Virus record (IMG/VR): IMGVR_UViG_3300006931_000029
Coordinates: 93,124 to 157,123 of that record
Strand: one strand, 5' to 3'
Source of the DNA: a virus
DNA length: 64,000 bases
The notes under the pieces are model-generated. The model had not been told where the DNA came from, searched no databases, and saw only the letters and a program-made list of their open reading frames with translations. Shown one piece after another: positions 7,544 through 51,222 of this stretch. Numbering within the stretch: position 1 is the first letter of the stretch; each line of letters begins with the position of its first letter. The translations under genes were made by a program, and so were the position numbers.

Positions 7544-8887
7544 TTACTCGTCGTCGAGATCGATGTCGGCATCGTCATCTTTCACGTCTTCGTCTCCTAC
7601 GACGTTGTCGCTGAACATGATTTCTCGGGCCTTCAGCCAAAGCAAGTCGAGATCAGCTTGATGGTCTTTGTAGAAGTTAACCCATTCTTTCTTCGAAGGA
7701 AGTTCAGGATCGTTCGTTGCTTTGCCCCGATCGTCGTCTTCTTCCAAGCTGCGCCCAGCCGATTTCTTAGACGATGCTGGTTGAAACGTGCTGGTGGTGA
7801 TGCCGAATTTGGCGAACTGCATCGTGAACCGCTTGGTCGACGGCGAGTATTTGGCGATGCCCAAGAAAATCATTGTCTCGAGCCGAGAGTAGAGATTGTT
7901 GAACCCACCCTCGAACAGGATAACGAGCCGACCCTCGCGAAGCGGCTTGATTTGCCGATTCTTCTGCGTGCGAAAGCCAATGAGATACCCTTGGGAGAAC
8001 CTGGCGCCGCTCAGGCGATAGTTCTCGTTGAGCCTGAACATAAACACCCGCAGAGACGAATAGAACCGCAGAGCTTTGCCACCGAAGGTAGAATAGTCGT
8101 CGTTTTGCGGAGTGCTGTAGTGAACCTTCCGCTGGCCGGGAGCCGTCTGCTTGAACGCGTCACGGACCTGGTTAGTGCAAACCATCAGCACGTTGTGCCG
8201 GTTGATTTCACGCTGCATACGACGGAACCCTTCAGACAGCATCTTCGGTTGGCGCTGGAAGTCTTCCTTGTTCCACTCCTTGGTCATCTCCTGCTTTGAA
8301 GACGTGCCGGCGATAGTGTCGACCACCAGAACCACGAAGTACAGAATGGGCTCGCGTTTCTCGTCCTTTGCGGCCTTGTTTTCCTCCAACTGTTTTTCCT
8401 TGATCTTCTCGATGACAATGTCCGACATCTTGAAAATCTGGTCGACGGTATCGCAACGAGCAATGATGCAATCAAGCGTCACTCCTTCGATGATGATCTT
8501 TTCATCTTCGTCTACCGATTGCTCGTTGTCAATGAAGACTGTGGTCACGGCAATCTTGGCCGGATCAATTTTCGTCAGCGACATCACGCCGCCGACCACT
8601 GACCGTCGGTAGATTTCTCCGATTTGTGCCTTGATCAGAGAGCGGATGCAGAGAGCGCTTTTGCCGCACGCCTCAAGCCCGTAAAGCTCAACGATTCGTC
8701 CGAAAGGAAGACCGCCGCACGCCTCATCCATCGGATCAAGCCCAGTTTTGAGGACGTACTCAACCTTGGACAGGATGTCCTCAGTCGAAAGGGCAACGTC
8801 AAACGTACCCTCTTCGTTTGAATCCTTCGGGCGTTGGCGCTTTAGTTGGCGCGCGACGATCTGATTAAGGTTGGGAATTTCGCTCAT
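7544..8887 (-). CDS. RecA/UvsX/Sak4-like recombinase ATPase
   Basis: GGLPFGRIVELYGLEACGKSAL (RecA Walker A context GRIVEIYGPESSGKT), FIDNEQSVD, and VVLVVDTIAG (RecA VVDSVAAL Walker B-like). Confidence 0.6.
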   Translation of the reverse strand: MSEIPNLNQIVARQLKRQRPKDSNEEGTFDVALSTEDILSKVEYVLKTGLDPMDEACGGLPFGRIVELYGLEACGKSALCIRSLIKAQIGEIYRRSVVGGVMSLTKIDPAKIAVTTVFIDNEQSVDEDEKIIIEGVTLDCIIARCDTVDQIFKMSDIVIEKIKEKQLEENKAAKDEKREPILYFVVLVVDTIAGTSSKQEMTKEWNKEDFQRQPKMLSEGFRRMQREINRHNVLMVCTNQVRDAFKQTAPGQRKVHYSTPQNDDYSTFGGKALRFYSSLRVFMFRLNENYRLSGARFSQGYLIGFRTQKNRQIKPLREGRLVILFEGGFNNLYSRLETMIFLGIAKYSPSTKRFTMQFAKFGITTSTFQPASSKKSAGRSLEEDDDRGKATNDPELPSKKEWVNFYKDHQADLDLLWLKAREIMFSDNVVGDEDVKDDDADIDLDDE

Positions 8888-10542: not shown

Positions 10543-10553
10543 GGTGAAATGGG

Positions 10554-11009
10554 TTAATCTGGAGTGATTGCGGGTTCGTCAGTGTAAACTTTTCTCCGTG
10601 TGGATTCAGTAGAACGGACTAGATCAAGTTTGCTTTGAAGCGAGATTTGCAGATTGATCAGCCTGCCACACCATCCTGAAAGCACGGCAAAACGACGGTG
10701 CGCTTTCTTCACGTCTTCTTGCAGAACGATCTGGCGGGAGAGATTCGTGTCAGTCTTTTTTCCGGTAAAATCTGGATCGCCTTCTAGTCGATTGAACGCT
10801 TCAGCTTCGACCTCTTTGATTTCTTGCTTCGCGACCAGTTTTTTCTCGGTGTAAATTTGAACGAGCATGTTAACCCACTCAATGAGTGCTGGCAACTCCT
10901 CGCTTGCGACAGAGATGTCGTTGTAGTCCTTCTTCAAGTAAAGGTCTACGTTGAGTTCGTAGCCTTGAAGCTTGATCGGTTCGAGTGTTGGTAGCTCGTC
11001 GTTTGGCAC
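10554..11009 (-). CDS. hypothetical protein
   Basis: 151-aa ORF in replication block. Confidence 0.4.
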   Translation of the reverse strand: MPNDELPTLEPIKLQGYELNVDLYLKKDYNDISVASEELPALIEWVNMLVQIYTEKKLVAKQEIKEVEAEAFNRLEGDPDFTGKKTDTNLSRQIVLQEDVKKAHRRFAVLSGWCGRLINLQISLQSKLDLVRSTESTRRKVYTDEPAITPD

Positions 11010-11110
11010 GGTGAAGATAGAGAAGCCGTCACGCCATAAGGGTTCTGTCGGCCCCTCCTCTGGAACTGCAAGCGGCGGCGTGACGGCTCTCGATGGAGAA
11101 CGTTATTTGA

Positions 11111-12520
11111 TCAAGGCTCGTCGCGTGACAGCTTTTCGAAGTCCGCGTCGCTGATACCTCTGCCTTTCTTGCGTGGCTTCTCCTTGGAATCACTCTTACC
11201 GCCGTCCTCTGGTTCGTACGGGATTTCTTCCCCTAAGTCGACAGTCATAGTTTCAGGATCGACCTTGCCTCTGAAGTGCTGAAACGCGGCGCCATGACGA
11301 TTGACAAACACAAAGGTTCTGAAGATGTTTTCAGCATATTCGTCGTCAGTCATACAAAGACCAATAGCGACGTCGACGATACCACCTTTCGCGAACGCTC
11401 CTTGAAACGCCTTCATGTTCGGCACGCGGTCGTTCGTCGCCTCTTTTGTCATACGGTCCGGCATGATGACGGGCACTCTGAATTCTGCTCCCAAGGCTCT
11501 GGCTTCAGTGTAGACACCAGCCTGGCGGAGATACTCTTTTTCGTAGTTGCCGGACGGCAAGACGGTGTCCGCGTAATCGATGATGATCGCTCGCAGTTTC
11601 TTGAGACCGAACTGTTGAATAGCCAGTCTGGCGTGGTTGCGAATCGTGGTGATTGTAGCAGTTCCGGCAGGATACCCCTTGATGACTAAGTTTCCAGCCA
11701 CCGACGTGACAACAGCCGTTTTGGTTAGCTCCTTGAACTTCTCTGGATTTTCGTAAAGGTAACTCATCCCTTTCTGGGTGATGTTCGTCATTCCACGAGC
11801 AAACGCCAGCTCTTGCGTGATTTCGCACGGGTAGTAGAGCACGTCGCCGCCCTGCATAGGGCTAATGATGTTCAGCGCGAGATTCATGCACACGGCCGTT
11901 TTGTAGCGCTTCGGAGGAGCCACGAGTGTCACCAGCCATCCAGGACCCCATCCTCGCTTCCAAATGCGATCCCACTGCGGGTAGCCTGTGAGAGTGCCGT
12001 AGTCGGCTTTCGTGATCTTGTCGATGACATGGGCGTAGTCCATGTGGAATACGAGTCCGAGGTCGTCTAGATTTTGGCCGACTTGAAGCGCGTCTTGAAA
12101 CAACTTTACGAACCCGTCCTCTGGAGATTTCTTCTCTTTGATCAACTCAACGCACTTTTTGATCGCGTTGATCGTTGCGCGTTCTCTCGCAAAAGTTATG
12201 ACTCTTGAGACAACAAACTCAGCATCCGACGTGTCGTGCTCCCTCAACTGGGTGATGTATTTGATGACTTCAGCGTCATCAGCCAGCGACAACTTCTTGT
12301 TTTGGTCTAGGGCGAGTTGCTTCAGCGTCGCCCACGACGGAGGCTTGCCGTACTTTCTGACGTAGTCTAACAGCGCATAAGCGATAACGGTAGCCTGTGC
12401 ACCTTGAAAATAGCTAGGCTGCAGAATTTCGCCGTACGCCAGAAACTTATCTGGATGGGCGATGAAGTGAGATATGATCGAATCTTGAAATTCGTCATCT
12501 AACGCAAAGTGATCGGGCAT
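11111..12520 (-). CDS. DnaB-like replicative helicase
   Basis: N-terminal DnaB-like helical domain pattern (DFY..H..IF...L), P-loop-like PPKRYKTAV, Walker B-like IIIDYADTV. Confidence 0.45.
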   Translation of the reverse strand: MPDHFALDDEFQDSIISHFIAHPDKFLAYGEILQPSYFQGAQATVIAYALLDYVRKYGKPPSWATLKQLALDQNKKLSLADDAEVIKYITQLREHDTSDAEFVVSRVITFARERATINAIKKCVELIKEKKSPEDGFVKLFQDALQVGQNLDDLGLVFHMDYAHVIDKITKADYGTLTGYPQWDRIWKRGWGPGWLVTLVAPPKRYKTAVCMNLALNIISPMQGGDVLYYPCEITQELAFARGMTNITQKGMSYLYENPEKFKELTKTAVVTSVAGNLVIKGYPAGTATITTIRNHARLAIQQFGLKKLRAIIIDYADTVLPSGNYEKEYLRQAGVYTEARALGAEFRVPVIMPDRMTKEATNDRVPNMKAFQGAFAKGGIVDVAIGLCMTDDEYAENIFRTFVFVNRHGAAFQHFRGKVDPETMTVDLGEEIPYEPEDGGKSDSKEKPRKKGRGISDADFEKLSRDEP

Positions 12521-21488: not shown

Positions 21489-21876
21489 CTAAACGTCTTC
21501 CCGTGTTAGGTTCGATTTGGACAGCTCGGTCGTCCCACAATTCCGTCATCGCAAAATCCTTTTGACACGTGATCGGAAGGACAACGCCAAAGTGCTTCTC
21601 ACACCATTTTCTAATGTGAATCGCTGCCTGCATCGCGTCGCTCTCTCGGTCGTTGGCGCCAACGAACTGCTCAACCCGATCTTCAGGGTGAATCATGTTT
21701 AGCGGCCAGACACGAGCTGTGAAGATTCGAACTTTCTTCCCTTGGACGAGCCAACGTCGAAGACGCAGAGCCATCGCTGGCACTGGTTCTCCGATGTGTT
21801 CAGCGTTTTTCCACCCCTGGTAATCGGCCAAAGTTCCGTCGAGGTCAACCCCGATCCATCCGCCAATGTGAGCCAT
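21466..21876 (-). CDS. HAD-superfamily small phosphatase-like
   Basis: GVDLDGTLA (DxDGT motif I), IFTAR (motif II-like). Confidence 0.45.
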   Translation of the reverse strand: MAHIGGWIGVDLDGTLADYQGWKNAEHIGEPVPAMALRLRRWLVQGKKVRIFTARVWPLNMIHPEDRVEQFVGANDRESDAMQAAIHIRKWCEKHFGVVLPITCQKDFAMTELWDDRAVQIEPNTGRRLDGVNDLQ

Positions 21877-23177
21877 TAGATTTCGTAGAGTCCGTGCAGT
21901 CGTGGACCATCCTTGATGGCTGCAAGATGCGCCTTCGTGTAGAGGATATTGTGGTCCTTGTGGAACTGCGACGGAAAGTAATTCTCAAGGTGCACAATCT
22001 GGAAACGGCACGTCGAGCCGAGATGTTTGATGTAGTGCTGCATGTGTTTCTTCGTGTAGTACCAGAAGCTGTTTGAGTTCCAGAACGACACGTGGCTCGG
22101 GTCTTGGTACGCTCCACGCCCATCAGTTGACGGCACTTCGATCAAGAACAAACCTCCGTGGTGCAGAACTCGGTACGCCTCATTCATAAACTGCACCACC
22201 TTGTTAGGATGAATGTGTTCAATCAAATCCTGAGCGCGTAGTGCTCCGACGCTGTTGTCTGGAAATGGCCACGTCTCTTCGAGATTGGCGATCACGGGCG
22301 CGTCGTGAACGTCGACTCCTTCCCAGCCAGGAGGAGGGTTGATTCCGCCGCCGAGATCGAGACAGCGAAGACCTTGCCGTTTCCAAAAAAAGACAGCAAA
22401 ATCTTGGATGAACCTGGCGTGGACTTGCCACGTCAGCTGTTCGATCAATTTCTGGTGCTTCAACCACGTGTTGTCGCCGTGGATCAGATATTTGTAGAGC
22501 ACCTTCTCGATGTGGTAAAAATTGCCCATGCTCATCTGATAGAGCTTGCACATCAGCTCAAGATCATCGCAAACCAGCATGTTTTCGTTGTGCCCTCCGA
22601 CAGCGTTGTAAGCGTCCATTCTCCACGCTCGAACATGGTCAGGAGCATACCAGATTCTCGTGACGTTTTGAGGAATTGCCAGCGGGTGAACAGCCACTCG
22701 GTGAGTTTCCACTGTGGCACCATGAAATTCGCGCTCAGTGTATTCCCAGCCATAAGCCGGACCATAAATTTCAGGTTTGCCGTCGGCGTGAATTCGCACA
22801 GCGTCAGAGAAAACAAAGACGGCGTTAGTCTTCAGGAACGCGGCCAAAACTTCTTCCAGACAATCTACTGATAGCTCGTCATCGTGGTCGAACTCGACGG
22901 CGAAGGGACTCATGGCGTGTTGACACGCCTTCTTTTTCAAAGCGCCGACGTTGATCGAACCATCTTCGTTTTTCTTACCCTCAAACGGGAAAAATTTGAC
23001 GCGCTGATCGTTCTCGACTATTGCGTAGCATTCTTTAGACGAGTTCTTTTGCAGGATTTTGCCGTTGAGCACCACGATCCATTCCCAGTCAGTAAGCGTC
23101 TGGCGCTTCAAACTTTGGTAGGCTTGCTCAAGCCACTTAATCGAGTTGGTTGGTGTGATAACTGAAATCTGAGCCAT
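21876..23177 (-). CDS. bifunctional glycosyltransferase family 2 / SAM-dependent methyltransferase-like
   Basis: N-term ISVITPTNSIKWLEQAYQSLKRQT (GT2); C-terminal part LDLGGG...HHGGLFLIEVP resembles class I methyltransferase fold. Confidence 0.5.
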   Translation of the reverse strand: MAQISVITPTNSIKWLEQAYQSLKRQTLTDWEWIVVLNGKILQKNSSKECYAIVENDQRVKFFPFEGKKNEDGSINVGALKKKACQHAMSPFAVEFDHDDELSVDCLEEVLAAFLKTNAVFVFSDAVRIHADGKPEIYGPAYGWEYTEREFHGATVETHRVAVHPLAIPQNVTRIWYAPDHVRAWRMDAYNAVGGHNENMLVCDDLELMCKLYQMSMGNFYHIEKVLYKYLIHGDNTWLKHQKLIEQLTWQVHARFIQDFAVFFWKRQGLRCLDLGGGINPPPGWEGVDVHDAPVIANLEETWPFPDNSVGALRAQDLIEHIHPNKVVQFMNEAYRVLHHGGLFLIEVPSTDGRGAYQDPSHVSFWNSNSFWYYTKKHMQHYIKHLGSTCRFQIVHLENYFPSQFHKDHNILYTKAHLAAIKDGPRLHGLYEI

Positions 23178-23211
23178 GTTGCGTTAGTAGAACGCCCTTA
23201 GCTCATCGGAA

Positions 23212-25113
23212 TCACATCGGAATCACGGTCACCCTCATGTCCATCGATCCAGGAGTTAAATCGCCGGCAAGCCAATTCTGAAGGTTCACACCAACAGTTC
23301 CAGATGACACAACGTTTGCGGTCACGACGGCGCCAGTAGGCCAAGCGAAGCCGTCGATCCGGTTGACCATCGCTGCGTCGTTAATGTCTACACCGCCAAG
23401 CGGAACGTTCAGATCGGACGCCAGGCCGGAACCAACGGTTCCAAAATCGTGAGACACGGTTGCTGTGAGTAGCGAGATTGAGCCTTGAAATCCTTGAGGA
23501 CCTTGAAATCCCTGCGAACCTGTGCTTCCTTGAGCGCCGGTATCTCCTTGCGCTCCAGTGCCGCCGGCTGCACCTTGAAAACCTTGAAAGCCTTGTGTAC
23601 CCGTTGAGCCTTGAAATCCCTGCGCGCCAGTATCTCCCTGCGCGCCCTGGAAACCTGCTCCTTGAAAACCTTGCGTTCCAGTCGTCCCTTGAAATCCTTG
23701 GCGGCCCTGAAAACCCTGAGCGCCCGTCACACCTTGCGATCCTTGCGCACCAGTAACGCCAGACGGCCCGGCAGGAACGAAGTCAACGACGATGTCTTCA
23801 AGGTCGCCGAAAGTTCCTTCAGTCAAGAACGGAGACACCGTGAACTTCCTGTAGCCTGTTGCCGTCACGAACAGCGTGACGTTGAAAAATCCAAAGACGC
23901 TAGGATCAACTGGCGAGTAGAAGTGGAAAATACCCTTCAGAGTGCCTGATCCGACAGAGTTAATAGCACCAAGCCATGCAGAGACGTCGACGTTGTTGTC
24001 GTTAGTCGTGCTGAAATACATTTCCGTCACGGAATCAGGATCGGCGTTGTTGAACGCAATCAAGCCGAGACCAGGGTCTTGGTCCACGGTGGACGTCGAA
24101 AAAGCGTACGGTTGGAAGTTTCCACCGAGATTGCCTTGCGGTCCTTGAAACCCTTGAGCGCCAAGTCCGCCTTGATTTCCAAGCGGGCCCGGAATTCCTT
24201 GTGGACCCGACGAACCCTGCGGACCGGCGATGACGCTGGGAGCGCCTTGCGGTCCTTGAAACCCTTGGAAACCCTGAAGTCCCTGGCTGCCGACGTTTCC
24301 TCTAGCTCCTTGAAACCCTTGCGTTCCCTCAGAGCCTTGAATGCCTTGATTTCCCTGTGATCCGCGCAAAAGAACTTGAGCCGACAGTTCGCTAGGAGTT
24401 TCCGTAGACGTCGTGTCTGCGCCTAGAGTTCCTTCAATGTTCTGCTGCGTAGCAACGTCCAACATTCCGATGATGTCTTGGCGGACCTGTGCAAGATTAT
24501 CGACAGCGGCCTGCTGTTCAGCAGTCAAGACTTTCGCATTTTCGCCACCGAGACCAATCCCATTTCGATAATTCTCCTGTGTCCGTTGAATAACCGGTTG
24601 CGTGTACACGCCGACCTGATTCGTGGCGCCGCAAATTGCTCTGGCGCAGTTGACTGCTTGAATGCCAGGGCCAATTCTCTTTTCAAACTCCTTTGCCGCA
24701 TCGCTGATCATGCCGTCAACTCGCGCCTGTAGTTGACCCAATTTTGCGAACGGATGCGTGTCGAGATTTCGCAGCAGCTTCAGGTAGGCTTCGTTTACGG
24801 CGTTCTGAAGATCGATCAACGCCTTGCCGTTGAACGGCGGCAAGAGTCCAGGACACAAAGCTTGAAGCTGATTGTATTTGTCGATGTCAACCAGCACGAT
24901 TGCGGTTAACTTAGACGGATCGACCAGAGGAATGTCTAGGCCTGCGTTGAAAAGCAAGTCGGCGACTCGACGCAGTGCTGCGAAGCGACCAATCAACTTG
25001 TTAAGCTGGTCAGTCGCGCCGACCGCGATCGCGTCCAGCATGGCGCAGAGTTCTTGTGGCGTGGACTGAGGCATTTTTCTAATTACAACGTTACTTAGGT
25101 CTAAGACCTCCAC
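23212..25113 (-). CDS. collagen-like triple-helix repeat fibre protein
   Basis: two blocks of G-x-Q/G-x-x repeats (GFQGAQGSQG...), Pro-poor; contains an approx 110-aa non-collagen domain (…ATGYRKFTV…) also repeated in 46014..48248. Confidence 0.6.
   Translation of the reverse strand: MEVLDLSNVVIRKMPQSTPQELCAMLDAIAVGATDQLNKLIGRFAALRRVADLLFNAGLDIPLVDPSKLTAIVLVDIDKYNQLQALCPGLLPPFNGKALIDLQNAVNEAYLKLLRNLDTHPFAKLGQLQARVDGMISDAAKEFEKRIGPGIQAVNCARAICGATNQVGVYTQPVIQRTQENYRNGIGLGGENAKVLTAEQQAAVDNLAQVRQDIIGMLDVATQQNIEGTLGADTTSTETPSELSAQVLLRGSQGNQGIQGSEGTQGFQGARGNVGSQGLQGFQGFQGPQGAPSVIAGPQGSSGPQGIPGPLGNQGGLGAQGFQGPQGNLGGNFQPYAFSTSTVDQDPGLGLIAFNNADPDSVTEMYFSTTNDNNVDVSAWLGAINSVGSGTLKGIFHFYSPVDPSVFGFFNVTLFVTATGYRKFTVSPFLTEGTFGDLEDIVVDFVPAGPSGVTGAQGSQGVTGAQGFQGRQGFQGTTGTQGFQGAGFQGAQGDTGAQGFQGSTGTQGFQGFQGAAGGTGAQGDTGAQGSTGSQGFQGPQGFQGSISLLTATVSHDFGTVGSGLASDLNVPLGGVDINDAAMVNRIDGFAWPTGAVVTANVVSSGTVGVNLQNWLAGDLTPGSMDMRVTVIPM
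23470..23770. repeat. collagen-like GxQ coding tandem repeat
   Basis: 9-nt periodic cc(t/c)tg(a/g)aa(a/t)cc-type units; all frames open. Confidence 0.55.
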
Positions 25114-31100: not shown

Positions 31101-32897
31101 TTAGGTCTTCTTTGCCGCGGGCACTGCAGGCGAAGGTGTCGTTTCAACGTCCGTCACCATTCCCGCCATCTGAGCGAGTTTGGACGGGTCCATCTTCAGA
31201 AGCTTCAGCAACGGCGTAACGTCAACGCCAGCCGCTTTTGCTTTGAGGAAGAATTCAGTAACCATGCCAGGGATTGCGCCAGCGAAACTGGCGACGCCGC
31301 CGCCTTTGCCGTCACCGGTGCCCATGTCAACGATGGAAACATTCTTGATCGCACCCAGCGACGTGCCGAGAGGACCGAACATTGCCGCCAACATTTTAGC
31401 GCCGGCATCGCCGCCCTTGTCGAAGAGCACAGGAAGACGATCGAGTACCATGATGAATTTGCCTTCTTCAGATAGTTGCTTCAACGCCTCGGCCAATTTC
31501 TCGGTACCTTCAGCTTCGGCGAGAAGAGCAGCGCGTTTACCGTTGGCAACAGCGAGCAATCCTTTCTCAGAACCATCGGCTTCGGCAAGAAGAGCAGCAC
31601 GCCGACCGTCAGCAGCTGCGAGTTGGTTTGCACGAACACCTTCTGCGATGGCGAGTTGGGTTGCCTTATTGCCATCGGCCTCGGCTGTCAACTTGACGCG
31701 TGTCGCTTCACCTTCAGCCGCAGCGATCGTGCGAGTCTTGGACGCGATACCTTCACCTTCCTTGACAGCAGCGTTTGCTTTACCGGTTGCCGTGATTTCC
31801 AGTTGACGCGCCGTGCGTTCAGACACGGATTGCTGGTTATCGGCCTCAATGAGGGCAGCTTTGGCTTTCGCCTCAGCTTCGACGATGATTGTCGCCTGCA
31901 GTCTCTTTTGGTTGAGACTAGCCTGCTTTTCCTGCACGGCAATACCAGCGTCAGCGGCTGCGGCGTCTCTGGCCGCTTCTTTCACCCGGAGATTTTGCTC
32001 TTGGGCTGTTTTAGCAATGGCGTTGGCCATATCGGCCTCAGCTTTTTTGCCTTCAGTTTGAACCTTAAACTCGGCAATCTGAATGTCGCGTTTCTTTTCG
32101 GCGTCAGCGACCATAGCGGCGTTCTGCGCCTTTACCTCGGCCGACTCGCGTTCAGCGTTAGACGTCTTGATGGCGGTTTCCTTCTTTGCTTCTGCCGTGG
32201 CGATTTCAGCATCACGGATGATGGCGGCGGTTTCTTTACGGCCGAGAGCCTTGATGTAGCCTTCCGCGTCTTGAACGTCTTGCACGACCAGCGTGATGAT
32301 CTGAATCCCGAGACGGCGGAACTCGTCAGACGACTCTTCAAGAACCTGCTTGTTGAACTCAGAGCGATCCCGAAGAATCTGCTCGACGCTCAACTTAGCA
32401 ATGATGCTACGAACGTGACCGCGAAGGATTTCGCTAATCGTGCTCTTGATTTCTTCGGCGTCTTTGCCGAGGAATGCTTGCACCGCATTCGATTGTTCGT
32501 CGGGATTCGGCGAAACACGGCATGTGGCAACGGCAGTGATGTTAACCGGGACGTTCTTGGCCGTCGGCACCTGTTGCTCCTTAATTTCCACCTGGAAGGC
32601 AGCTGTGCTCATGACCTCGAACCGCTCCACGATCGGCATCAAAATCTTACCACCACCGGTGATGATTTTGAATCCGCGGATACCGGTCTTCTGAACGGAC
32701 TCCTCGGTGTAGTTGTACTTGTACTTCCGGCCGTAGAAGACGCCGATGCCGTTCGGCGGAACCGTTTTGTAGCGCGATGCGGCAATGAAGCCAACGATCG
32801 CGACGCAGATAACGACGGCGATGATTACACCTGGAACGAAAAAGCCACCAAGCAAACCGGGGCTTGCTTGAGCGAGGAAGAGCATGCTAGTATTCAT
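31101..32897 (-). CDS. SPFH/band-7 flotillin-like protein
   Basis: N-terminal TM anchor, SPFH-domain-like region, long Ala/Glu/Lys-rich coiled-coil (EA repeats) typical of flotillin/YqiK. Confidence 0.65.
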   Translation of the reverse strand: MNTSMLFLAQASPGLLGGFFVPGVIIAVVICVAIVGFIAASRYKTVPPNGIGVFYGRKYKYNYTEESVQKTGIRGFKIITGGGKILMPIVERFEVMSTAAFQVEIKEQQVPTAKNVPVNITAVATCRVSPNPDEQSNAVQAFLGKDAEEIKSTISEILRGHVRSIIAKLSVEQILRDRSEFNKQVLEESSDEFRRLGIQIITLVVQDVQDAEGYIKALGRKETAAIIRDAEIATAEAKKETAIKTSNAERESAEVKAQNAAMVADAEKKRDIQIAEFKVQTEGKKAEADMANAIAKTAQEQNLRVKEAARDAAAADAGIAVQEKQASLNQKRLQATIIVEAEAKAKAALIEADNQQSVSERTARQLEITATGKANAAVKEGEGIASKTRTIAAAEGEATRVKLTAEADGNKATQLAIAEGVRANQLAAADGRRAALLAEADGSEKGLLAVANGKRAALLAEAEGTEKLAEALKQLSEEGKFIMVLDRLPVLFDKGGDAGAKMLAAMFGPLGTSLGAIKNVSIVDMGTGDGKGGGVASFAGAIPGMVTEFFLKAKAAGVDVTPLLKLLKMDPSKLAQMAGMVTDVETTPSPAVPAAKKT

Positions 32898-34576: not shown

Positions 34577-34936
34577 CTAAGTATCACTCTTCTGGTCGCT
34601 CCGAACTAGCTTGAGAAGGTGACCGTATCTTCCTGTGAATCTTTCCACCTTGAGCGGAAACGACGGCTCCTCAATCTTCGAAAATCGTGAAGCCGTCAGG
34701 CACGGTTCGTAATTTTTTGGCCCACCTTCAGGCGGGGATCGTCGACCTATTTTCTCGCCATGCGGTGCGAAAACGATTAGGTCGATGGTGCCGTCCGACC
34801 AGGTTTCTTTAACCTTTCCGAACGTTGGGCTATGATCGTCCGTGTGATCTTTGACCCAGTCTCCGGTTTTGAACGGAAACTTATTTTTCTGTGTTTGCTT
34901 TAGGGGCAAGTTTTTCCTTAAGAGCCAGTTCAACAA
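34577..34936 (-). CDS. hypothetical protein
   Basis: 119-aa ORF; 56-nt overlap with next gene so start uncertain. Confidence 0.35.
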   Translation of the reverse strand: MLNWLLRKNLPLKQTQKNKFPFKTGDWVKDHTDDHSPTFGKVKETWSDGTIDLIVFAPHGEKIGRRSPPEGGPKNYEPCLTASRFSKIEEPSFPLKVERFTGRYGHLLKLVRSDQKSDT

Positions 34937-42837: not shown

Positions 42838-43041
42838 TTATTCGATGAATTCCACGTCGTGGAACCAGGCGCGTCTGATGTAGATGCCCTCTTTGATGAG
42901 ATAACCAGTGTCGGACACACCGGTTATCTTGCCCTCGTGGACTGACATTCCGAATTGGCAGAATTGCAGAAAACGGACTTGCTTGCCGATGTTACGGCGA
43001 GCCCTCCTTTTCTTCAGCCACCTAGAAAACCACTTGAACAT
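42838..43041 (-). CDS. hypothetical small protein
   Basis: 67-aa ORF. Confidence 0.35.
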   Translation of the reverse strand: MFKWFSRWLKKRRARRNIGKQVRFLQFCQFGMSVHEGKITGVSDTGYLIKEGIYIRRAWFHDVEFIE

Positions 43042-43057
43042 TCACGGCAAGAACATC

Positions 43058-43852
43058 TTACCCGATAGCCCAGATGCGAATCACACCTTGACCACCTGCG
43101 CCACCTGCGCCTGAAAAACTTGGGTTCGCGGAACGGCCACCACCGCCACCACCGCCTCCGCCCATGAAACCGGCTCCACCGGTTCCACCGCCCGCGCTAC
43201 CACCACCTCCACCGCCGCCACCCGTGCCCCAGTTTTTTGACGACGTTGGCGCTGCGTTAGCTGCGCTTCCGCCTGCTAACGTGCTGCCGAGCTTTCCACC
43301 GTTTCCACCAGCAACCGCGGCATTGCCACCTGTTTGGCCGGCGCCGTTTCCGCCGCCACCACCAGCGTCAGCTGTCGCCGGTGTTGACGCGCCAGTGTTT
43401 GCCCCAGCGCCGGCGACACCACCTTGGATTGTGGTGTTGGCAACGCTGCCTCCGTTTCCAGTAACATTTCCTGCACCGTTGCAGCCGCTTCTTCCACCCG
43501 TGCCGCCACCGCCGCCGCGAGCGCGGAGAATAACTGTGCTGCTGGACGTGACCGTCGAGTCGCCGCCCGTACCGCCTGTGTTGCCTGTGTCAGCTTGAAC
43601 AGCTGTACCGCCAGCAGCGGCCGATCCTACTGCTGCGGTCAAGCTAGACGCTACGTCGGCCGTAGCGAAGAAAGACGTCGCGAAACCTCCGCCTTGACCT
43701 CCACCACCTCCCGGATTTGTTACGCCGCACTGAGAAGAGCCGCTACCACCACCGCCGCCACTGCCAATCGCCTCGATGATTAGCATGTCGGCAGACGTTG
43801 GAACAGAGTAGCTGTTCGAGCCCGTCGTGTAGACTGTGAGTGTGACTGCCAT
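43058..43852 (-). CDS. Gly-rich paralog 1 (possible fibre/structural)
   Basis: N-term ...YSVPTSADMLIIEAIGSGGGGG, poly-Gly core, C-term GVIRIWAIG; paralog of next two genes. Confidence 0.5.
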   Translation of the reverse strand: MAVTLTVYTTGSNSYSVPTSADMLIIEAIGSGGGGGSGSSQCGVTNPGGGGGQGGGFATSFFATADVASSLTAAVGSAAAGGTAVQADTGNTGGTGGDSTVTSSSTVILRARGGGGGTGGRSGCNGAGNVTGNGGSVANTTIQGGVAGAGANTGASTPATADAGGGGGNGAGQTGGNAAVAGGNGGKLGSTLAGGSAANAAPTSSKNWGTGGGGGGGGSAGGGTGGAGFMGGGGGGGGGRSANPSFSGAGGAGGQGVIRIWAIG

Positions 43853-43855
43853 GTT

Positions 43856-44764
43856 TTAACCTTGTGCCCAAAAACGAACTACGCCGCCACCGCCAGCACC
43901 ACCGCTACCCGACGGATTTGTGTTGCTGAATCCGCTGGCGCCTCCGCCACCACCGCCACCCATGAAACCGGCAGAACCACCGCCGGAAGTTCGAGTAGAA
44001 TTGCTCATAGCGCCTCCGCCACCGCCGCCTCCGCCGCCATAACCCCAGGTGTTTGAGTGAGTAGGCGTGGTACCGCCGGGTTGGCCACCTGATCCGCTAT
44101 CAGCCGCGCCACCTGATCCGCCACCGGATGCGGTCGATCCGCCTTTAACTCCGCCGGCTCCGCCAGCCGCTCCTGCTGTCGTACCACCCGTGGATTTGCC
44201 ACCACCTCCACCACCACCGCCTGCAGCGCCTGCTGAACCTGCGACGCCGTTAGTTCCACCAGCAGCGCCGCCTGTCGTATTCGCAGCTCCTCCCGCGCCG
44301 CTTGTTCCGCTTGAAAGACCCGCGCCACCGGCGTTTCCGCCAGGTGCGGTTACGATCGCAGTACCGCTCGACGTAACAGTTGTAGAATTTCCGGCCGTAC
44401 CAGCACCACCGTTTGCCGTACCCGTAACGCCGGTGCCACCACCGCCGCCACCTATTGAGACGATCAACGACGCGGCTGCATCTGCCGTGGATATGCGAAC
44501 AAATGCGTAACCACCTCCACCACCACCACCGCCTCCGCCGCCGTTGTTGGTGGAAACGTTACTTCCGCCAGCGCCACCACCGCCACCGGTTCCGATGCCT
44601 TCAATAAACAGCAGACTCGATCCGACTGGAACCGAGTATGTTCCGTTTGCAGTGAAGACGTCTAGCTGAAAAAATCCAGCGCTAGCTCCTCCTGACGCAG
44701 CGTCAGCTGTCGACCAAAAATTTCGACAATGACTCGTTTTTGTAACTCTGCTTGATTGGATCAT
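43856..44764 (-). CDS. Gly-rich paralog 2
   Basis: FFQLDVFTANGTYSVPVGSSLLFIEGIGTGGGGG ... GVVRFWAQG. Confidence 0.5.
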   Translation of the reverse strand: MIQSSRVTKTSHCRNFWSTADAASGGASAGFFQLDVFTANGTYSVPVGSSLLFIEGIGTGGGGGAGGSNVSTNNGGGGGGGGGGGYAFVRISTADAAASLIVSIGGGGGGTGVTGTANGGAGTAGNSTTVTSSGTAIVTAPGGNAGGAGLSSGTSGAGGAANTTGGAAGGTNGVAGSAGAAGGGGGGGGKSTGGTTAGAAGGAGGVKGGSTASGGGSGGAADSGSGGQPGGTTPTHSNTWGYGGGGGGGGGAMSNSTRTSGGGSAGFMGGGGGGGASGFSNTNPSGSGGAGGGGVVRFWAQG

Positions 44765-45663
44765 CCTGTTGCCCAGATACGAATCACTCCGTCTCCGCCG
44801 ACTCCGCCGGTACCGCCGTTGTTGTTGCCGCCAGAAGTTGACGAGTGTCCGGAGCCACCTCCACCACCACCACCCATGAAACCAGCGCCGCCAGCAACCG
44901 CGTTGCCTGAAGTTCCGTTTGCGCCACCACCGCCGCCACCACCAGAACCCCAGTTAGTCGAGTGAGAGGTCGCAGCGCCTCCGTTTGCTGCTCCGCCAGC
45001 TCCTTCGCCACCATACAATCCGCCAGAGTTTCCAGCCGATCCAGTGCCAAGAGACGCGGCACTACTTGAACCTGCGCCGCCGCACCCGCCACCGCCGGCT
45101 AACGCGGCAGTAGGTTGCGTTGATGCGCCTGAAGATACTCCGATAGTTCCGTCTCCACCGCCTTGCGTTGTGGCTCCAGCACCAGCCGAACCGCCCGCGG
45201 CGTTCGTGCCGCCGCCGCCCGCACCGCCTGCGAGCGCTCGAATAATTTCGTCTCCTGAGCCGTTGTTGTCAACAACGAACGAAGGGTTTCCAGCAGCGCC
45301 AGGACTTCCGCTGCTGCCTGCTGTGCCACCACCGCCTGAACCCGTGCCACCCGCCCCAACCGTGTAAGATAGCGGGCCGGTTAAATTTGCGACAGCAAAC
45401 ATAACGCGAGCGTAGCCACCACCGCCACCACCACCACCACCGAACGCAGCAGTTGCCGTGACAAAGGATCGGCCGCCTCCGCCTTGACCGCCGCCGCCTA
45501 TGGCTTCGATCATCAACTGTGTCGCTGAACTAGGAATAGCGTAGCTGCCGGTTCCACTCGTGAAAACGTCCAACTGAAAAAATGCTCCGCCAGCGACTGG
45601 TACCGTTGTCCAATCTCTCCGTAGGTGTCCACCATCTTCTTTGTTAACCGTGGTAACGATCAT
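44761..45663 (-). CDS. Gly-rich paralog 3
   Basis: FFQLDVFTSGTGSYAIPSSATQLMIEAIGGGGQG ... GVIRIWATG. Confidence 0.5.
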   Translation of the reverse strand: MIVTTVNKEDGGHLRRDWTTVPVAGGAFFQLDVFTSGTGSYAIPSSATQLMIEAIGGGGQGGGGRSFVTATAAFGGGGGGGGGYARVMFAVANLTGPLSYTVGAGGTGSGGGGTAGSSGSPGAAGNPSFVVDNNGSGDEIIRALAGGAGGGGTNAAGGSAGAGATTQGGGDGTIGVSSGASTQPTAALAGGGGCGGAGSSSAASLGTGSAGNSGGLYGGEGAGGAANGGAATSHSTNWGSGGGGGGGANGTSGNAVAGGAGFMGGGGGGGSGHSSTSGGNNNGGTGGVGGDGVIRIWATG

Positions 45664-46010
45664 GCGTCTGTCATGCCTAGCAGTTGGACGGTTACGCCGG
45701 AACCATCTGCTAAGCCGAAGATGGCATCGTTCGTGTCAGTAAGAACCCATGGATATTTCGGTTCCAAAAGCAATGACTCGTTGGTGACGAGAGTCACTTT
45801 GTACATCTGGTTGGTCGTAGCTACAGTGCCCAGCGAACCTCCCGAATCAGGCACGTTGTTCAATGTCACGACTCTAGACGACGCGTTCGAATTGTGCAGT
45901 TGAATGCACCCGACATACGTCTTTGTCGAAGAGGGATTGGCGTAGATGGAAGCAGAAGCGCCAGTCGCAACCGACGCAATGTCCATCAGCTTGTTGAATT
46001 GAAGTGCCAT
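45660..46010 (-). CDS. hypothetical structural-cluster protein
   Basis: 116-aa ORF; preceded by TAA-1 codon-ATG junction. Confidence 0.45.
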   Translation of the reverse strand: MALQFNKLMDIASVATGASASIYANPSSTKTYVGCIQLHNSNASSRVVTLNNVPDSGGSLGTVATTNQMYKVTLVTNESLLLEPKYPWVLTDTNDAIFGLADGSGVTVQLLGMTDA

Positions 46011-46013: not shown

Positions 46014-48248
46014 TTAAGTAGCGAACAGCCAGAGAAAACGAGGGTCGTTGCCGGCCACGCCCTGGAAACCTTGATTTCCCTGGAATCCTTGAAAGCCTTG
46101 CGTTCCCGTTGCGCCTTGAACTCCTTGAGGACCTTGGAAACCCTGATTTCCTTGCGATCCTTGGGAACCTTGAGAACCCTGCGATCCCGCAGGTCCAGCG
46201 AACGCGAATGTGAAACAGACCTCGTCATTCAGCGAGAACGTTGTACCGGAATCGTCCTGGTACGTGACAGCGAATTTGCGATAGCCGGTCGCCGACACCA
46301 CGCTTCCTGTGAAGATGAATGTTGCAAACGTGTTGACGTCTGCCTTCTTGTAGACCTTTATCGTGCCGCGGTTGGTAGACGATCCGAAGTTGTCCAACGA
46401 ATCCAACCATCCTGTGACGTCAACCAACGACTCGTTGAGCAAGTCAACATAAAGGAACGTAACAGAAGCATAGGTCGCGTTGTTGAACTTCAGGAAGCCA
46501 TCGCCAGGATCAGAGTCGGCTGTGTTGGTGTTGAAGAAGAAAATCTGCGTGTCGCCGCCGGCACTAGAATCACCGGACGAACCTTGGAATCCTTGCGAGC
46601 CTTGAGAACCCGTCGAGCCCTGGTTGCCTATAGACCCTTGGAATCCTTGCGAGCCTTGAGCTCCTTGATTTCCTTGAGCGCCCGTGCTTCCCGCCGCTCC
46701 TTGCGCACCAGTCAATCCCTGGAAACCCTGGCGGCCCTGGAAACCTTGTGCGCCTTGTGCGCCGTCGTTGCCGGGCGCTCCGGTCAATCCTTGAACACCT
46801 TGGTTTCCTTGGTTGCCAGTGTATGTCCACGTGAACGCAATGTCATTACCAGCAGTGAACGTCGTGCCTGAAGAATGCTGGAACGTGACGGCAATCTTTC
46901 GATAACCCGTCGCCGTTGTGACGCTTCCAGTGACGATGAACGTAATGAAGACGTTTGCATCTGCGCTCTTGAACAACTTGAGCACGCCGCGGTTCGTCGA
47001 CGAGCCAAAGTCGTCGATAGCATCCAACCACGTTGTGATGTCGACGCCACCTTTGTTGAACGTGCTCGCAAAAATCTGGGTGACAGAAGCGTAGGTCGCG
47101 TTGTTGAAACGGACCTTGCCGCTACCCGGGTCTGCGTCGCTCGTTCCGGTGTCCCATGTGTAGATTTGTGTGTCGCCGCCAGAACCTTCGCTGCCCTGCG
47201 CACCTGTAGAACCCTGATTTCCTTGGAAACCCTGAGAGCCCGTAGTTCCAGTTGAGCCTTGGAATCCCTGATTACCCTGCGAACCTTGGAATCCTTGGAA
47301 TCCCTGCGCGCCATCGGGAGGACCTTGGAATCCTTGGAATCCCTGACTGCCTTGTGATCCTTGTGCTCCCGCAGTTCCGGCTGAGCCTTGACTACCTTGC
47401 GATCCAGTCGACCCGGTCGCACCTTGAAAACCTTGAAAGCCTTGCGCTCCAGTTGATCCCGCCGCTCCTTGAAGTCCTTGGAAACCTTGGCGACCTTGGA
47501 ATCCTTGCGAGCCTTGAGCACCCGCTGCGCCTTGCGAACCCTGAAATCCCTGCGCGCCATCAGGAGGACCTTGGAATCCTTGAAAACCCTGTGCACCTTG
47601 AGAGCCAGTTGAACCTTGAAATCCCTGCGAACCCGTCGTTCCTGTCACGCCTTGGAAACCTTGACGACCTTGGAATCCCTGCGCACCTTGCGATCCCGTG
47701 GTTCCAGTTGAGCCTTGGAAACCTTGGTTGCCCTGCGCTCCGCTGATGCCATAAGTGAAGATCGCGACTCCCGTGAAAACAGGAGACGGCGCTGCTGAGA
47801 AGACCGTGCAAGTTAGCGTGACGGTCGAATTGATGTTGTCGAACGAAACGTTAGTGATGCTGTAGACAACGTGTGTCGAAGAGTTCGTCTCGAGATAGAT
47901 GACAAAGTGAGACGGTGCCAATCCCGAAAACCAACTCGAAGCGTTCTGACCCGCAAGGTTCGTTTGATTTGCGACAATGGCTGTTGCGAGTTGAGGGCTC
48001 GCATTGTTCAATCGGAAAGTTCCAGTCGTTGGATTTCCAGTCGTCAGCGACGAATAGGTGTAGCGCTGCGACGGCCCGCCTGCTGTTCCTGTCGGCCCTT
48101 GAAAACCCTGAAATCCTTGAAAACCCTGAGCGCCCTGATTCGCGTCCGCGTAATCTTTGTTGACTGCGTCTTTGCCATCAACCGGTGCACTCAAACCAGC
48201 CAACCGCTGGTTTTCGAGCGTATTGCCTCTTTGAATGATCGGAACCAT
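46014..48248 (-). CDS. collagen-like repeat fibre protein with three interspersed about 110-aa globular domains
   Basis: multiple GxQ/GxxG blocks; repeated domain ...FNNATYASVT...GSSTNRG...TGSV..ATGYRK(I/F)AVT... Confidence 0.6.
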   Translation of the reverse strand: MVPIIQRGNTLENQRLAGLSAPVDGKDAVNKDYADANQGAQGFQGFQGFQGPTGTAGGPSQRYTYSSLTTGNPTTGTFRLNNASPQLATAIVANQTNLAGQNASSWFSGLAPSHFVIYLETNSSTHVVYSITNVSFDNINSTVTLTCTVFSAAPSPVFTGVAIFTYGISGAQGNQGFQGSTGTTGSQGAQGFQGRQGFQGVTGTTGSQGFQGSTGSQGAQGFQGFQGPPDGAQGFQGSQGAAGAQGSQGFQGRQGFQGLQGAAGSTGAQGFQGFQGATGSTGSQGSQGSAGTAGAQGSQGSQGFQGFQGPPDGAQGFQGFQGSQGNQGFQGSTGTTGSQGFQGNQGSTGAQGSEGSGGDTQIYTWDTGTSDADPGSGKVRFNNATYASVTQIFASTFNKGGVDITTWLDAIDDFGSSTNRGVLKLFKSADANVFITFIVTGSVTTATGYRKIAVTFQHSSGTTFTAGNDIAFTWTYTGNQGNQGVQGLTGAPGNDGAQGAQGFQGRQGFQGLTGAQGAAGSTGAQGNQGAQGSQGFQGSIGNQGSTGSQGSQGFQGSSGDSSAGGDTQIFFFNTNTADSDPGDGFLKFNNATYASVTFLYVDLLNESLVDVTGWLDSLDNFGSSTNRGTIKVYKKADVNTFATFIFTGSVVSATGYRKFAVTYQDDSGTTFSLNDEVCFTFAFAGPAGSQGSQGSQGSQGNQGFQGPQGVQGATGTQGFQGFQGNQGFQGVAGNDPRFLWLFAT
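47170..47760. repeat. collagen-like GxQ coding tandem repeat
   Basis: 9-nt periodic ccttg(a/g)aa(a/t)cc units over about 600 nt. Confidence 0.55.
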
Positions 48249-48559
48249 TAGATGGCAATGAAGGAGACAGTTGCACTGAGGGAACTGTCGGCGCTAGCAA
48301 TGAGATAGATCGAATCCCCAGCGGAAAGAAGGATTTTTTCAGTCGAAAGGAACAGGCTGTCGTACGCTCTCATCGTCCGGCTTTTGATGATTGTGGTCGT
48401 CGGACTTGCAGCGTTTCCCTGTTTGATGACGTGAACATCCACCGTTCGCTCGGCATTTACATAGTTGCAAACCATAATGTTCACAACCGCGTAGTTCAAC
48501 CCCGCCGGGACGGTCAGAAGCGTTGTTCCCGCTGCTGCGATCAGGTTCTGTAAGATCAT
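48248..48559 (-). CDS. hypothetical protein
   Basis: 103-aa ORF coupled to neighbours. Confidence 0.4.
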   Translation of the reverse strand: MILQNLIAAAGTTLLTVPAGLNYAVVNIMVCNYVNAERTVDVHVIKQGNAASPTTTIIKSRTMRAYDSLFLSTEKILLSAGDSIYLIASADSSLSATVSFIAI

Positions 48560-51222
48560 GAGCTGAGGTCACGGTTCCAGGTGTATTGGAAATTGACGGT
48601 GAGGTAGTTCAACTTGATCTTCGTCTGAGCCTCGTCGAAAACGAACACGTAGCCGTTGTACTTCGAAGCGTTGATGCGGTTGATGACCTGCGTGTCCGGG
48701 TCCATGCCGCCGATGCCGATGGTGCGCCAATTTGTACCGTTCGCCATGTTCGTCTGGAACGTGGCTTGCTTGATGCGCGTGAATCCACCGGGAGTGTACG
48801 ACTGCAGCGTGAGAGGAAGTTCGACGTGACGGGCGGTCGATCGATCGACAGACGTTCCGATGGTAGCAGGAGCGTCGGTTGCTTCTGAGATGAACGCAGA
48901 TGCCCCAGTGACGTCTTGAATACCACCACCGATCAGGAACGCTGGGTCGCTTTGCGTGACGTCCACAACCGGCGTTGATGCCGTTGCGCTGTTCAGCACG
49001 TCGACCAACCAGTTGACGACCTGCGTCGTCGACGTTTCGATCTTGATCGTGATTGGGATCGTGAGCGTTGGTCCAGCTCCGATAGCATTGCCATTGAAGT
49101 AGACAATGTTCGAGGTCGTGGCAACGGTTGAATCGCTCTCAACGAATGAGAATTTTCCAGCGCCCGGAAAGCTGCTCGAACTGTATGTGACAACAGACAG
49201 TTCCGTCGTGTCTCGATAGACGTGAATCTCGGTTTTAACACGACCGCCTGTTCCGCGATCGCCAACAACAGGAGCTGTACCTTCGCGCCGCATCGCCGGC
49301 CGAGGATTCGTCAACACGACGAAGTAGGTCGGCAACGCTGGATTTTGACGGATAGCGTAGATCGTGTAGAACGCAACAGCGCCTCGAGTCGTGTCTGGAT
49401 CGGACCCGTTGAGAACCACCCGGTAGCGTCCATTTCCGCTGAACAAGGTGGGATCACTCAGGTCGAAGATGTCTGTTGGAAGGACGGTGAATGTCGACGC
49501 CGTTGCGCCTTCGATTGCCTCCCACTCGTCTCCAACCTCATTGAATTTCTCCCACTGATATGTCGGCGTGACGTAATTCTGCTGGACTGCCGTGAGCAGA
49601 ATGGACACCGGGTTGGACGAGGTCGGCGTGAAGTCGGTCTTCCAGTTGTCCCACGGAGATTCGCCGATGTATGGGATGGCGTTTGGAAATTGAGTTTGAG
49701 GATCGACGCCGTTCCAACCAGGAGTTAGTCCACCTTGGCGCTGAACTTGTGCCGACGGCGGTGCAACCAACGGCTGCATCATGTCGATCGCATTCTCGAT
49801 CTCACCAAACCACTGACCGGTCGATCCGTTGCCGGACCTGAAATAGAGAGTCGGGATTCCGCTGATCGTTGAGATTGGGGCGGCTGGTGAACACGTGACT
49901 TGGCGCGAGTTAGTGAACGCCGTGATGCGCGTGTATTGCGTCGAGATTTTGATGACCGAGCCAATGTCGGCGGCGGTGAACACGTATTCGCCTGTCTGAG
50001 CGCTGCCCGAATATGATAGCTCACCAGCCGTAGTCAAATTCATGTTCGCACCGACGCTGACCGCAGGTGGAATGTAGCTTCCGGTCGTGGCAACGGCAAG
50101 CTTTGCCGGAAGATTGCGGGGGTTCGTGAACGGATTTCTATCCGCTCGAGCGTAGAGTTTGATCGGCGAACCGGCTCCATTGCCCCAACGGTTGACATAA
50201 CCGAATTGAGGCCCGAGGTAATTCGAACCAGGAGCATACGGCTCGTTGCACAATTGGCTCCGGTCGTACGGCCGAGCGAGACCGTTGACGTCGACCACAC
50301 AGAGACCGTAGAGTTGGATTTGCTCCGTGCCGGTCGTGGTCGTTGCAGGCAGAACTGGCCAACCGGTCACCGTCGGAGACTTTCCATTCGGCGTAGCCGG
50401 AGACAGCTTGATGGACAGTTGGTAGGAAACCTGCAACCATTGTCCAGGAGATAGGAAGATGATGTCAGGAAGCACCACCCGGCTGAACAGCGTGGTCGCC
50501 TTTGGAGAATCTTTGAAACCCAACTCAGCGATTTGAACCGGACTCGACTCGAGATAGAAGTCGAAGGTCCTGAACATCGTCACTGTGTCACCATCAATTT
50601 CGGTACCGCACATGCCGTCACCGACCTGGTACCGCATGTTCATCGAGTATGGCGTGACGAGCGCCGTCTGATCGACGTTGTAGACATCGAACGCAGCCGA
50701 AGAAACCGTCTGAGAAACATCGACCGTTACTGTGGTCGTGTTGGTGTAGGCGGTGACTCTCGCAGACTTGTTGGTGCCGGGCCAGTAGATGAGCTTTCCG
50801 ACTATGGAAGGAGAGAAAGAGTAAGAGCCAGCAGTGATGGAAACGGTCGTTGTTGCTTGAGACGCATTCGACGCCGTGGTGACTTTGGTAGGCGTCGTTC
50901 CTGTTCCCGCTACGCAAAACTGAAAGGCCTGCGCCCACGGCATGAAGGCGATCTTGTCCAGACCTGAGTCCAAAATCAAGTTGGGTAACCATTTGTCGTG
51001 CTGAAAGTCCACGGACCCGTCGGCATTCATCACGCGGCACTTGTACCGGCCGCGAGCCGACGTAACAAACTCTTTGTGAAAGACGGAGGCGGGCATGTTG
51101 CCCCTAAATACGCAGGTCAAGCAGAGTGTAGTTAGCGTCATGGGCACCATCCACGAAACCAATCGTCGTCGCGCATCGGCTCTGGCAAGCCAAATGTGAC
51201 CTAGCGCTTTACCCGCCGCCAT
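48556..51222 (-). CDS. large hypothetical structural protein (fibre/baseplate-like)
   Basis: 888-aa ORF, Thr/Ser/Gly-rich, beta-rich composition; start uncertain. Confidence 0.5.
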   Translation of the reverse strand: MAAGKALGHIWLARADARRRLVSWMVPMTLTTLCLTCVFRGNMPASVFHKEFVTSARGRYKCRVMNADGSVDFQHDKWLPNLILDSGLDKIAFMPWAQAFQFCVAGTGTTPTKVTTASNASQATTTVSITAGSYSFSPSIVGKLIYWPGTNKSARVTAYTNTTTVTVDVSQTVSSAAFDVYNVDQTALVTPYSMNMRYQVGDGMCGTEIDGDTVTMFRTFDFYLESSPVQIAELGFKDSPKATTLFSRVVLPDIIFLSPGQWLQVSYQLSIKLSPATPNGKSPTVTGWPVLPATTTTGTEQIQLYGLCVVDVNGLARPYDRSQLCNEPYAPGSNYLGPQFGYVNRWGNGAGSPIKLYARADRNPFTNPRNLPAKLAVATTGSYIPPAVSVGANMNLTTAGELSYSGSAQTGEYVFTAADIGSVIKISTQYTRITAFTNSRQVTCSPAAPISTISGIPTLYFRSGNGSTGQWFGEIENAIDMMQPLVAPPSAQVQRQGGLTPGWNGVDPQTQFPNAIPYIGESPWDNWKTDFTPTSSNPVSILLTAVQQNYVTPTYQWEKFNEVGDEWEAIEGATASTFTVLPTDIFDLSDPTLFSGNGRYRVVLNGSDPDTTRGAVAFYTIYAIRQNPALPTYFVVLTNPRPAMRREGTAPVVGDRGTGGRVKTEIHVYRDTTELSVVTYSSSSFPGAGKFSFVESDSTVATTSNIVYFNGNAIGAGPTLTIPITIKIETSTTQVVNWLVDVLNSATASTPVVDVTQSDPAFLIGGGIQDVTGASAFISEATDAPATIGTSVDRSTARHVELPLTLQSYTPGGFTRIKQATFQTNMANGTNWRTIGIGGMDPDTQVINRINASKYNGYVFVFDEAQTKIKLNYLTVNFQYTWNRDLSS

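Follow-up and report, generated by a model that had tools for sequence, protein, structure and literature searches.

The closest solved relative of the proteins described here is gp33 of mycobacteriophage Bxb1 (PDB 9D93 chains Qa/Qb), a phage tail-appendage tip. The Bxb1 tail-wing module has gp30 as its carboxypeptidase base, gp31 as its arm and gp33 as its brush, the last of these forming the outermost part of the wing (PMC12646305). In cyanophage Pam3, gp24 (PDB 7YFW/7YPX) combines a TNF-like and a glycine-rich domain in the distal part of the tail fibre. In the polyglycine-II lattice of this protein the glycine motifs are conserved and the distal loops less so (PMC9608196; PMC13243192), and its hypervariable tip has been proposed as the receptor binder (PMC9608196). 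Pam3 gp24 is a homotrimer with its own N-terminal α-helical domain for trimerisation and baseplate docking, and it needs the chaperone gp25. The gp38 adhesin of Salmonella phage S16 and of the T2 type (6F45) shares its working principle with the role we propose below: it is a small adhesin attached in trans to the fibre tip, its polyglycine-II sandwich is built from conserved glycine-rich motifs, and its variable loops bind the receptor (PMC9608196; PMC13243192). The extracellular TNF-like/glycine-rich (TG) domain of ALK/LTK (PDB 7LRZ, 7NX1, 7LIR) is a distant, structural match only; unlike the phage proteins, it is part of a eukaryotic receptor tyrosine kinase and binds a cytokine.

Clusters of several Gly_rich_2 (PF21722) genes in one phage are already known from a deposited cyanophage, Synechococcus phage Bellamy, where gp38, gp41 and gp44 are annotated as hypothetical. 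The family, its fold and its place at phage fibre tips were also known before, and knowledge of PF21722 itself is unchanged by the present finding. What is new here is modest: a lineage of large soil phages retains three stand-alone paralogs as a group, these follow a collagen-like shaft and a small conserved jelly-roll protein, and there is a hint of a general cassette of fibre, adaptor and exchangeable tip. In this uncultured large soil phage, three low-complexity genes that would otherwise count as 'hypothetical' thereby receive a fold and a likely role, which we infer is most likely to grip the host cell surface.

A glycine-rich gene trio in a fibre operon

The stretch of DNA that was analysed (64,000 nucleotides, hereafter the window) belongs to a phage contig that is at least 199 kb long and comes from soil and rhizosphere metagenomes; rhizosphere samples containing the contig are JGI 3300025936, 3300005618 and 3300026095. 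The window also encodes a DNA polymerase, a DnaB-like helicase and a UvsX-like recombinase, and some contigs with the same 116-aa protein (see below) belong to the 0.2-1 Mb class. Megablast of 40-50 kb against the INPHARED phages gave no match; there is no near relative among these deposited phages.

The original prediction described three consecutive minus-strand genes with glycine-rich products, and open reading frames were found exactly where it had placed them (g1, g2 and g3; Table 1). Each product contains 34-37% glycine, and glycine, alanine, serine and threonine together account for about 70% of residues. Proline-rich open reading frames on the opposite strand (for example 43164-43598) are mirror images of the GGN codons.

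Table 1. Genes of the co-directional block in the window, in order of transcription.
Feature	Position	Strand	Length	Remarks
861-aa gene	48556..51141	minus	861 aa	first of the block; gene call on contig L003, syntenic genes of 844-848 aa in relatives
103-aa gene	48248..48559	minus	103 aa	phrog_1276 (E 3.3e-7), function not assigned; gene call on L003, an identical contig
Collagen-like fibre	46014..48248	minus	744 aa	interspersed globular repeats; C-terminus ...NDPRFLWLFAT
Small conserved protein	45660..46010	minus	116 aa	phrog_20100; predicted jelly-roll β-sandwich
g3	44761..45663	minus	300 aa	Gly_rich_2 paralog; N-terminal extension of about 27 aa; motif RRDWTT
g2	43856..44764	minus	302 aa	Gly_rich_2 paralog; N-terminal extension of about 30 aa; motif RNFWST
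g1	43058..43852	minus	264 aa	bare Gly_rich_2 domain, no N-terminal extension
67-aa ORF	42838..43041	minus	67 aa	directly after g1; called in L003/L004; present in L012/L013
Metallophos phosphoesterase				

In the direction of transcription the trio lies near the 3' end of this tightly packed operon, and its supposed place at the head of a structural cluster is not supported. The flanks of the block are not recognisably structural, consisting of tRNAs, PTH2 and small genes, one of them a response-regulator-like gene on the other strand, and none of the window's ORFs that were tested could be identified as a capsid, portal or terminase gene. From the fibre gene to g1 the genes are joined by two types of junction. 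The fibre gene and the 116-aa gene are separated by TAA + 3 nt + ATG, and the same arrangement, which the original prediction had assumed throughout the trio, was confirmed for g2/g1; the g3/g2 junction is instead an ATGA overlap, as is the one between the 116-aa gene and g3.

The 744-aa fibre has a Pfam Collagen match at E 2.3e-50 and also matches tail-fibre families in PHROG. A PDB match of the same protein to 8ZXL ('spindle/axial fibril') was rejected, as this entry comes from an animal collagen assembly study and the likeness is limited to collagen repeats. Apart from collagen, the matches of neighbouring genes were confined to phrog_20100, phrog_1276 and Metallophos. The 861-aa protein had no PHROG, Pfam or PDB sequence match, and the 67-aa ORF, which is kept in relatives (72 aa in L012), had no family match. 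A scan for promoters and terminators gave counts at chance level.

To judge whether g1, g2 and g3 resemble one another in more than composition, they were aligned and scored against 500 composition-preserving shuffles. In the three-way alignment, pairwise identity is 47-50%, and 28-31% once Gly/Gly columns are excluded. Full-length local alignment scores lie 19.5-20.5 SD above the shuffles (g2 vs g1: 50% identity, z 19.5; g3 vs g1: 49% identity, z 19.7). The conserved terminal blocks of the original prediction were borne out by the same comparison, with z values of 12-18 for the N-terminal block alone and 9-10 for the last 45 residues, and in no test did a shuffle match the observed score. On this sequence evidence g1, g2 and g3 qualify as true paralogs, beyond compositional likeness, and the original prediction withstands its own test, by which a likeness in glycine content alone would have undone it. 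Two details of the original description need adjustment. The N-terminal string FFQLDVFT, thought to be shared by all three, is limited to g2 and g3, which also carry the N-terminal extension of about 30 residues that g1 lacks; g1 opens directly with the equivalent strand VTLTVYT, such that the block itself is present in all three. The core does vary and has indel-rich parts, but it also contains several aligned conserved motifs, namely GGGGGGGG(Y/F)A, TADxAxSL, STVTSSGTxIxRAxGG, S.NWGxGGGGGGG and AGFMGGGGGGG.

Family membership and predicted fold

Only g1 is recognised directly by Pfam, matching PF21722 (Gly_rich_2, 'Glycine-rich domain') at 41 bits (gathering score 24.3), an alignment that spans positions 3-223 of the 226-position profile; hmmscan gave no direct match for g2 or g3, and none of the three has an NCBIfam match. 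Tblastn of g1 against phages returned nothing, the low-complexity filter masking the whole query. A word-indexed protein search with g3 was saturated by poly-Gly words and yielded only 10 weak matches, six of them annotated with PF21722. An exhaustive search was therefore needed, and a profile built from the three copies was compared with 1.84 billion cluster representatives. This gave 3004 proteins at E<=1e-3, of which 367 also pass E<=1e-10 (best 5e-31). The family is thus large, although the representatives include no close relative. Among the 150 best of the 3004 matches, about 140 lie at the C-terminal end of a longer protein (300-1400 aa), stopping at most a few residues short of it; stand-alone proteins of at most 350 aa make up about 20, and a few contain two tandem domains. 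The contigs of two close homologues (P0011 and P0007) are short and contributed little on gene context. Against PDB sequences, the same profile recovered the Bxb1 'tail wing brush' gp33 (9D93; E 9e-8) and the Pam3 fibre (7YFW/7YPX; E 6e-5). The best explanation of g1, g2 and g3 is that they are stand-alone paralogs of the Gly_rich_2 domain. Such genes escape notice through wrong-frame gene calls, BLAST masking and a Pfam profile that misses two of the three.

A model of g1 was created with AlphaFold2 from a 75-sequence alignment and is confident (pLDDT 85.2, pTM 0.86). Its β-strands are limited to residues 3-29, 57-74, 99-111 and 257-263, the remainder being neither helix nor strand. The conserved N- and C-terminal blocks are thus predicted by the model to form, jointly, one small TNF-like β-sandwich. 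By homology to the solved members of the family, the Gly-rich core is predicted to be a stacked lattice of polyglycine-II helices, with most of the variation in the loops that connect them; a terminal-strand β-sandwich together with such a lattice is the fold seen in the solved PF21722 members. The low-confidence parts of the model (residues ~125-140, 150-160 and 190-210) coincide with the indel-rich, variable regions in the alignment of the three copies.

In the fold search, the best match of the g1 model was Bxb1 gp33 (score 23.5 over 210 residues, 32% identity), followed by Pam3 gp24 (17.5 over 181 residues, 28%), the Bxb1 spike gp29 (12.0 over 151 residues, 23%) and the ALK/LTK glycine-rich domains (7.3-8.1 over about 130 residues, 22-23%). 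Like Bxb1 gp33, g1 is a stand-alone protein of about 265 aa with this fold. Unlike Pam3 gp24, the trio has no N-terminal α-helical bundle, as the first β-strand of g1 begins at residue 3 and the extensions of g2 and g3 amount to no more than 27-30 residues; nor was a gp25-like gene recognised in the family searches of the neighbouring genes. The trio was also excluded from the gp38 adhesin family: S16 gp38 (6F45) was recovered neither by the three-copy profile against the PDB nor by the fold search.

Copy number, age and selection in related contigs

Syntenic loci are present on four related contigs (L011-L013, 30-222 kb in length, and L014), each with exactly three Gly-rich genes after the 116-aa gene. 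A search of IMG/VR with the 116-aa protein gave just two partial matches, which were left out of the comparison. For some of the Gly-rich genes the gene caller had chosen a wrong frame; upon translation in the correct frame all are intact, with three intact copies each in L012 and L014. The order of the copies in the relatives is extended (323/325 aa), bare (272 aa), extended (298/300 aa), as compared with extended, extended, bare in the window. The bare copies of the window and of the relatives group together, and the two extended copies cannot be placed unambiguously.

Orthologs of the three copies in L012 and L014 are 73%, 85% and 59% identical. The window copies share only 46-55% identity with any L012 or L014 copy, barely above the identity between paralogs, whereas the adjacent 116-aa protein of the window is 74-77% identical to its counterparts. 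The three proteins have therefore diverged faster than their 116-aa neighbour. Between the window copies there are no long DNA repeats, only short ones driven by GGN codons, and thus no sign of recent gene conversion. Because the relatives hold three intact copies and long DNA repeats between copies are lacking, the comparison shows a triplication that is old and maintained, as two extended copies and one bare copy, rather than a recent tandem duplication. The earlier suggestion of alternative or heteromeric proteins would fit the retention of exactly three copies in two related lineages.

Contrary to the diversifying selection that had been proposed for the cores, pN/pS between L011 and L012 is 0.13-0.20 for two of the copies; the value of 0.8 for the third comes from three differences only and is uninformative. 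Selection between these close strains is, by this measure, purifying. Synonymous divergence between L011 and L012 is 0.004 in one gene and 0.63 in the gene next to it, a step that points to recombination mosaicism and not to positive selection acting locally. Six contigs from several soil samples carry the window locus with 100% identity. What speaks the other way is the greater divergence of the copies from those of a relative, as compared with the 116-aa protein. In the comparisons of strains and samples, the three copies show neither the non-synonymous excess nor the between-sample variation of hypervariable receptor-binding genes.

A proposed role at the fibre tip

Genes of the 116-aa family always have a fibre gene on one side and a variable distal gene on the other. 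In Bellamy, gp43, a homologue of the 116-aa protein with 31% identity, is flanked by a 'tail fiber' gene and by the PF21722 gene gp44, which gives this phage the same order of fibre, small protein and Gly-rich protein as in the window. Bellamy differs from the window in that two further PF21722 proteins encoded nearby have two fused domains each (663 and 711 aa), only one single-domain copy follows the 116-aa homologue, and the fibre gp42 is not collagen-like. The slot that gp44 occupies in Bellamy holds a LamG/ConA-like lectin-type protein in two further contigs (L015 and L020) and unrelated proteins in phage S-CBWM1 and two others (L021 and L022). This comparison of gene neighbourhoods shows that the content of the slot is exchangeable among phages, as would be expected of an exchangeable binding module. 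A short hydrophobic tail of the W-L-F type recurs, in similar form, at the C-terminus of the proteins encoded directly upstream of the 116-aa family. Besides that of the window fibre (Table 1), the tails are DIRDVWLFS (L019), DIRDVWLLG (L021), DNRSIWLFS (L022), DDGPLFFF (S-CBWM1) and FDTWLYGGG (Bellamy). The 116-aa jelly-roll protein is accordingly a candidate adaptor between fibre and tip proteins, and there is a hint of a recurrent cassette of fibre, adaptor and exchangeable tip. A cassette of W-L-F-tailed fibre, jelly-roll protein of about 116 aa and exchangeable tip could be used to flag receptor-binding genes in metagenomic phages.

Based on these observations, it seems fairly probable that the trio forms the distal, host-binding tip of the collagen-like fibre, attached in trans, probably via the 116-aa protein. 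In this proposal g1, g2 and g3 would be virion proteins at the end of the fibre encoded two genes upstream of them, held by the 116-aa jelly-roll protein on the W-L-F tail of that fibre. The two extended copies and the bare copy would probably occupy non-equivalent positions, and the glycine lattice would hold its variable loops towards the host surface, in line with the proposal made for Pam3 gp24. The original prediction of fibre or decoration proteins is supported by the homology to Bxb1 gp33 and Pam3 gp24 and by the collagen-like fibre operon. Four points speak against a role at the tip. Pam3 gp24 attaches by its N-terminal helical domain, which the trio lacks; the best fold matches of the 116-aa model make a location on the head possible; g2 and g3 are missed by the Pfam scan; and pN/pS lacks the signature of positive selection that receptor-binding proteins often show.

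A more specific version of the tip arrangement, which we regard as doubtful, is that the three paralogs form a 1:1:1 heterotrimeric head on the trimeric collagen-like fibre, joined through the 116-aa adaptor. Complement C1q has three paralogous TNF-like heads on a collagen stalk. The fibre and trio would be a phage analogue of it, differing in that the stalk and the heads come from separate polypeptides. Such a head, if true, would explain why every related lineage keeps exactly three copies, two extended and one bare, while their order and sequence drift. The conserved number of three thus poses a small, testable question on hetero-oligomeric fibre tips.

The first alternative to a tip of this kind moves the trio to the head of the virion, on collagen-like capsid fibrils or decorations anchored via the 116-aa protein; the fold and the binding role would be unchanged. 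The predicted model of the 116-aa protein finds its best fold matches in capsid cement and turret proteins, which makes a capsid location possible. We consider placement on the capsid rather unlikely.

It is considerably less probable that the three proteins are non-virion helpers, such as tail-fibre assembly chaperones like T4 gp38. The genes do lie downstream of the fibre gene, the usual place for chaperones, and g2 matches PHROG 863, annotated 'tail fiber assembly' (E 1.6e-5), but this match is confined to the Gly-rich part of the 690-position profile. The fold resembles structural tip domains and no known chaperones, the Pam3 chaperone gp25 (β-sandwich + α-helical) is unlike the trio (PMC9608196), and three maintained paralogs of ~270-300 aa would be unusual for chaperones.

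Finally, the high glycine content, the silence of Pfam on g2 and g3 and the masking of the entire query by the BLAST filter might suggest disordered Gly/Ala/Ser-rich chains that are alike in low-complexity composition only and have no common fold, a reading ruled out by z values of about 20 over composition-preserving shuffles and refuted equally by the confident g1 model and its fold matches.

Recombination and possible shuffling in the fibre operon

Synonymous divergence in the fibre operon was compared between two related phage loci, L011 and L012 (locus positions 5107-11895), whose strains are otherwise collinear. Divergence is only 0.004-0.03 in the 115-aa gene and two Gly-rich genes, and jumps to 0.37-0.63 in the 103-aa gene and the collagen-like fibre. 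This jump indicates sharp recombination mosaicism inside the operon.

We also compared the order of the three Gly-rich paralogs in the window (43058-45663) with that in two relatives, L012 (8345-11033) and L014 (5639-8332). The window reads extended-extended-bare, according to which copies carry the N-terminal extension, and both relatives read extended-bare-extended. By our reading of the alignment, the extensions do not pair up in the same way as the domain bodies, a hint of earlier shuffling among the three copies.

In public gene calls for L011 and L012, intact Gly-rich genes are displaced by wrong-frame Ala/Val/Glu-rich ORFs, and full-length family members were recovered from the miscalled regions of L011 and L012 by translation in the correct frame. 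Long spurious antisense Pro-rich ORFs likewise overlie all three paralogs in the window.

Fibre tails and a second collagen-like locus

Proteins encoded directly upstream of the 116-aa family, a small predicted jelly-roll protein, share a short hydrophobic C-terminal tail (NDPRFLWLFAT, DIRDVWLFS, DNRSIWLFS, DDGPLFFF, FDTWLYGGG), which may be a docking peptide for the jelly-roll protein. Elsewhere in the window, the 633-aa collagen-like protein may be a second fibre, perhaps glycosylated. A 433-aa fused family-2 glycosyltransferase/methyltransferase adjoins it.

Features of the window and of the compared loci
Feature	Location	Strand	Remark
Collagen-like protein with glycosyltransferase/methyltransferase	window 21876-25113	-	pair
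Second collagen-like protein, 633 aa	window 23212-25113	-	
SPFH/Band-7 domain protein, 598 aa	window 31101-32897	-	
AAA+ ATPase/protease-like protein, 620 aa	window 34881-36743	-	
Suppressor-type tRNA, anticodon CTA	window 39458-39533	+	ARAGORN label tRNA-Pyl
tRNA-Glu(TTC), 96 nt	window 40690-40785	+	unusually long
744-aa fibre C-terminus	window 46014-46050	-	hydrophobic tail
Hydrophobic-tail proteins, other loci	L001 7732-7992; L002 7490-7972; also L019, L021, L022		
Miscalled Gly-rich genes	L011 8345-9316; L011/L012 10136-11033		

tRNAs and stop codon usage

Stop codons were counted in 52 long reading frames of the window that do not overlap one another: 26 end in TGA, 24 in TAA and only 2 in TAG. 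Together with the tRNA whose CTA anticodon reads UAG, this scarcity of TAG suggests that the phage avoids the codon or recodes stop codons. Because of its length, the tRNA-Glu(TTC) may contain an intron or a large insertion.
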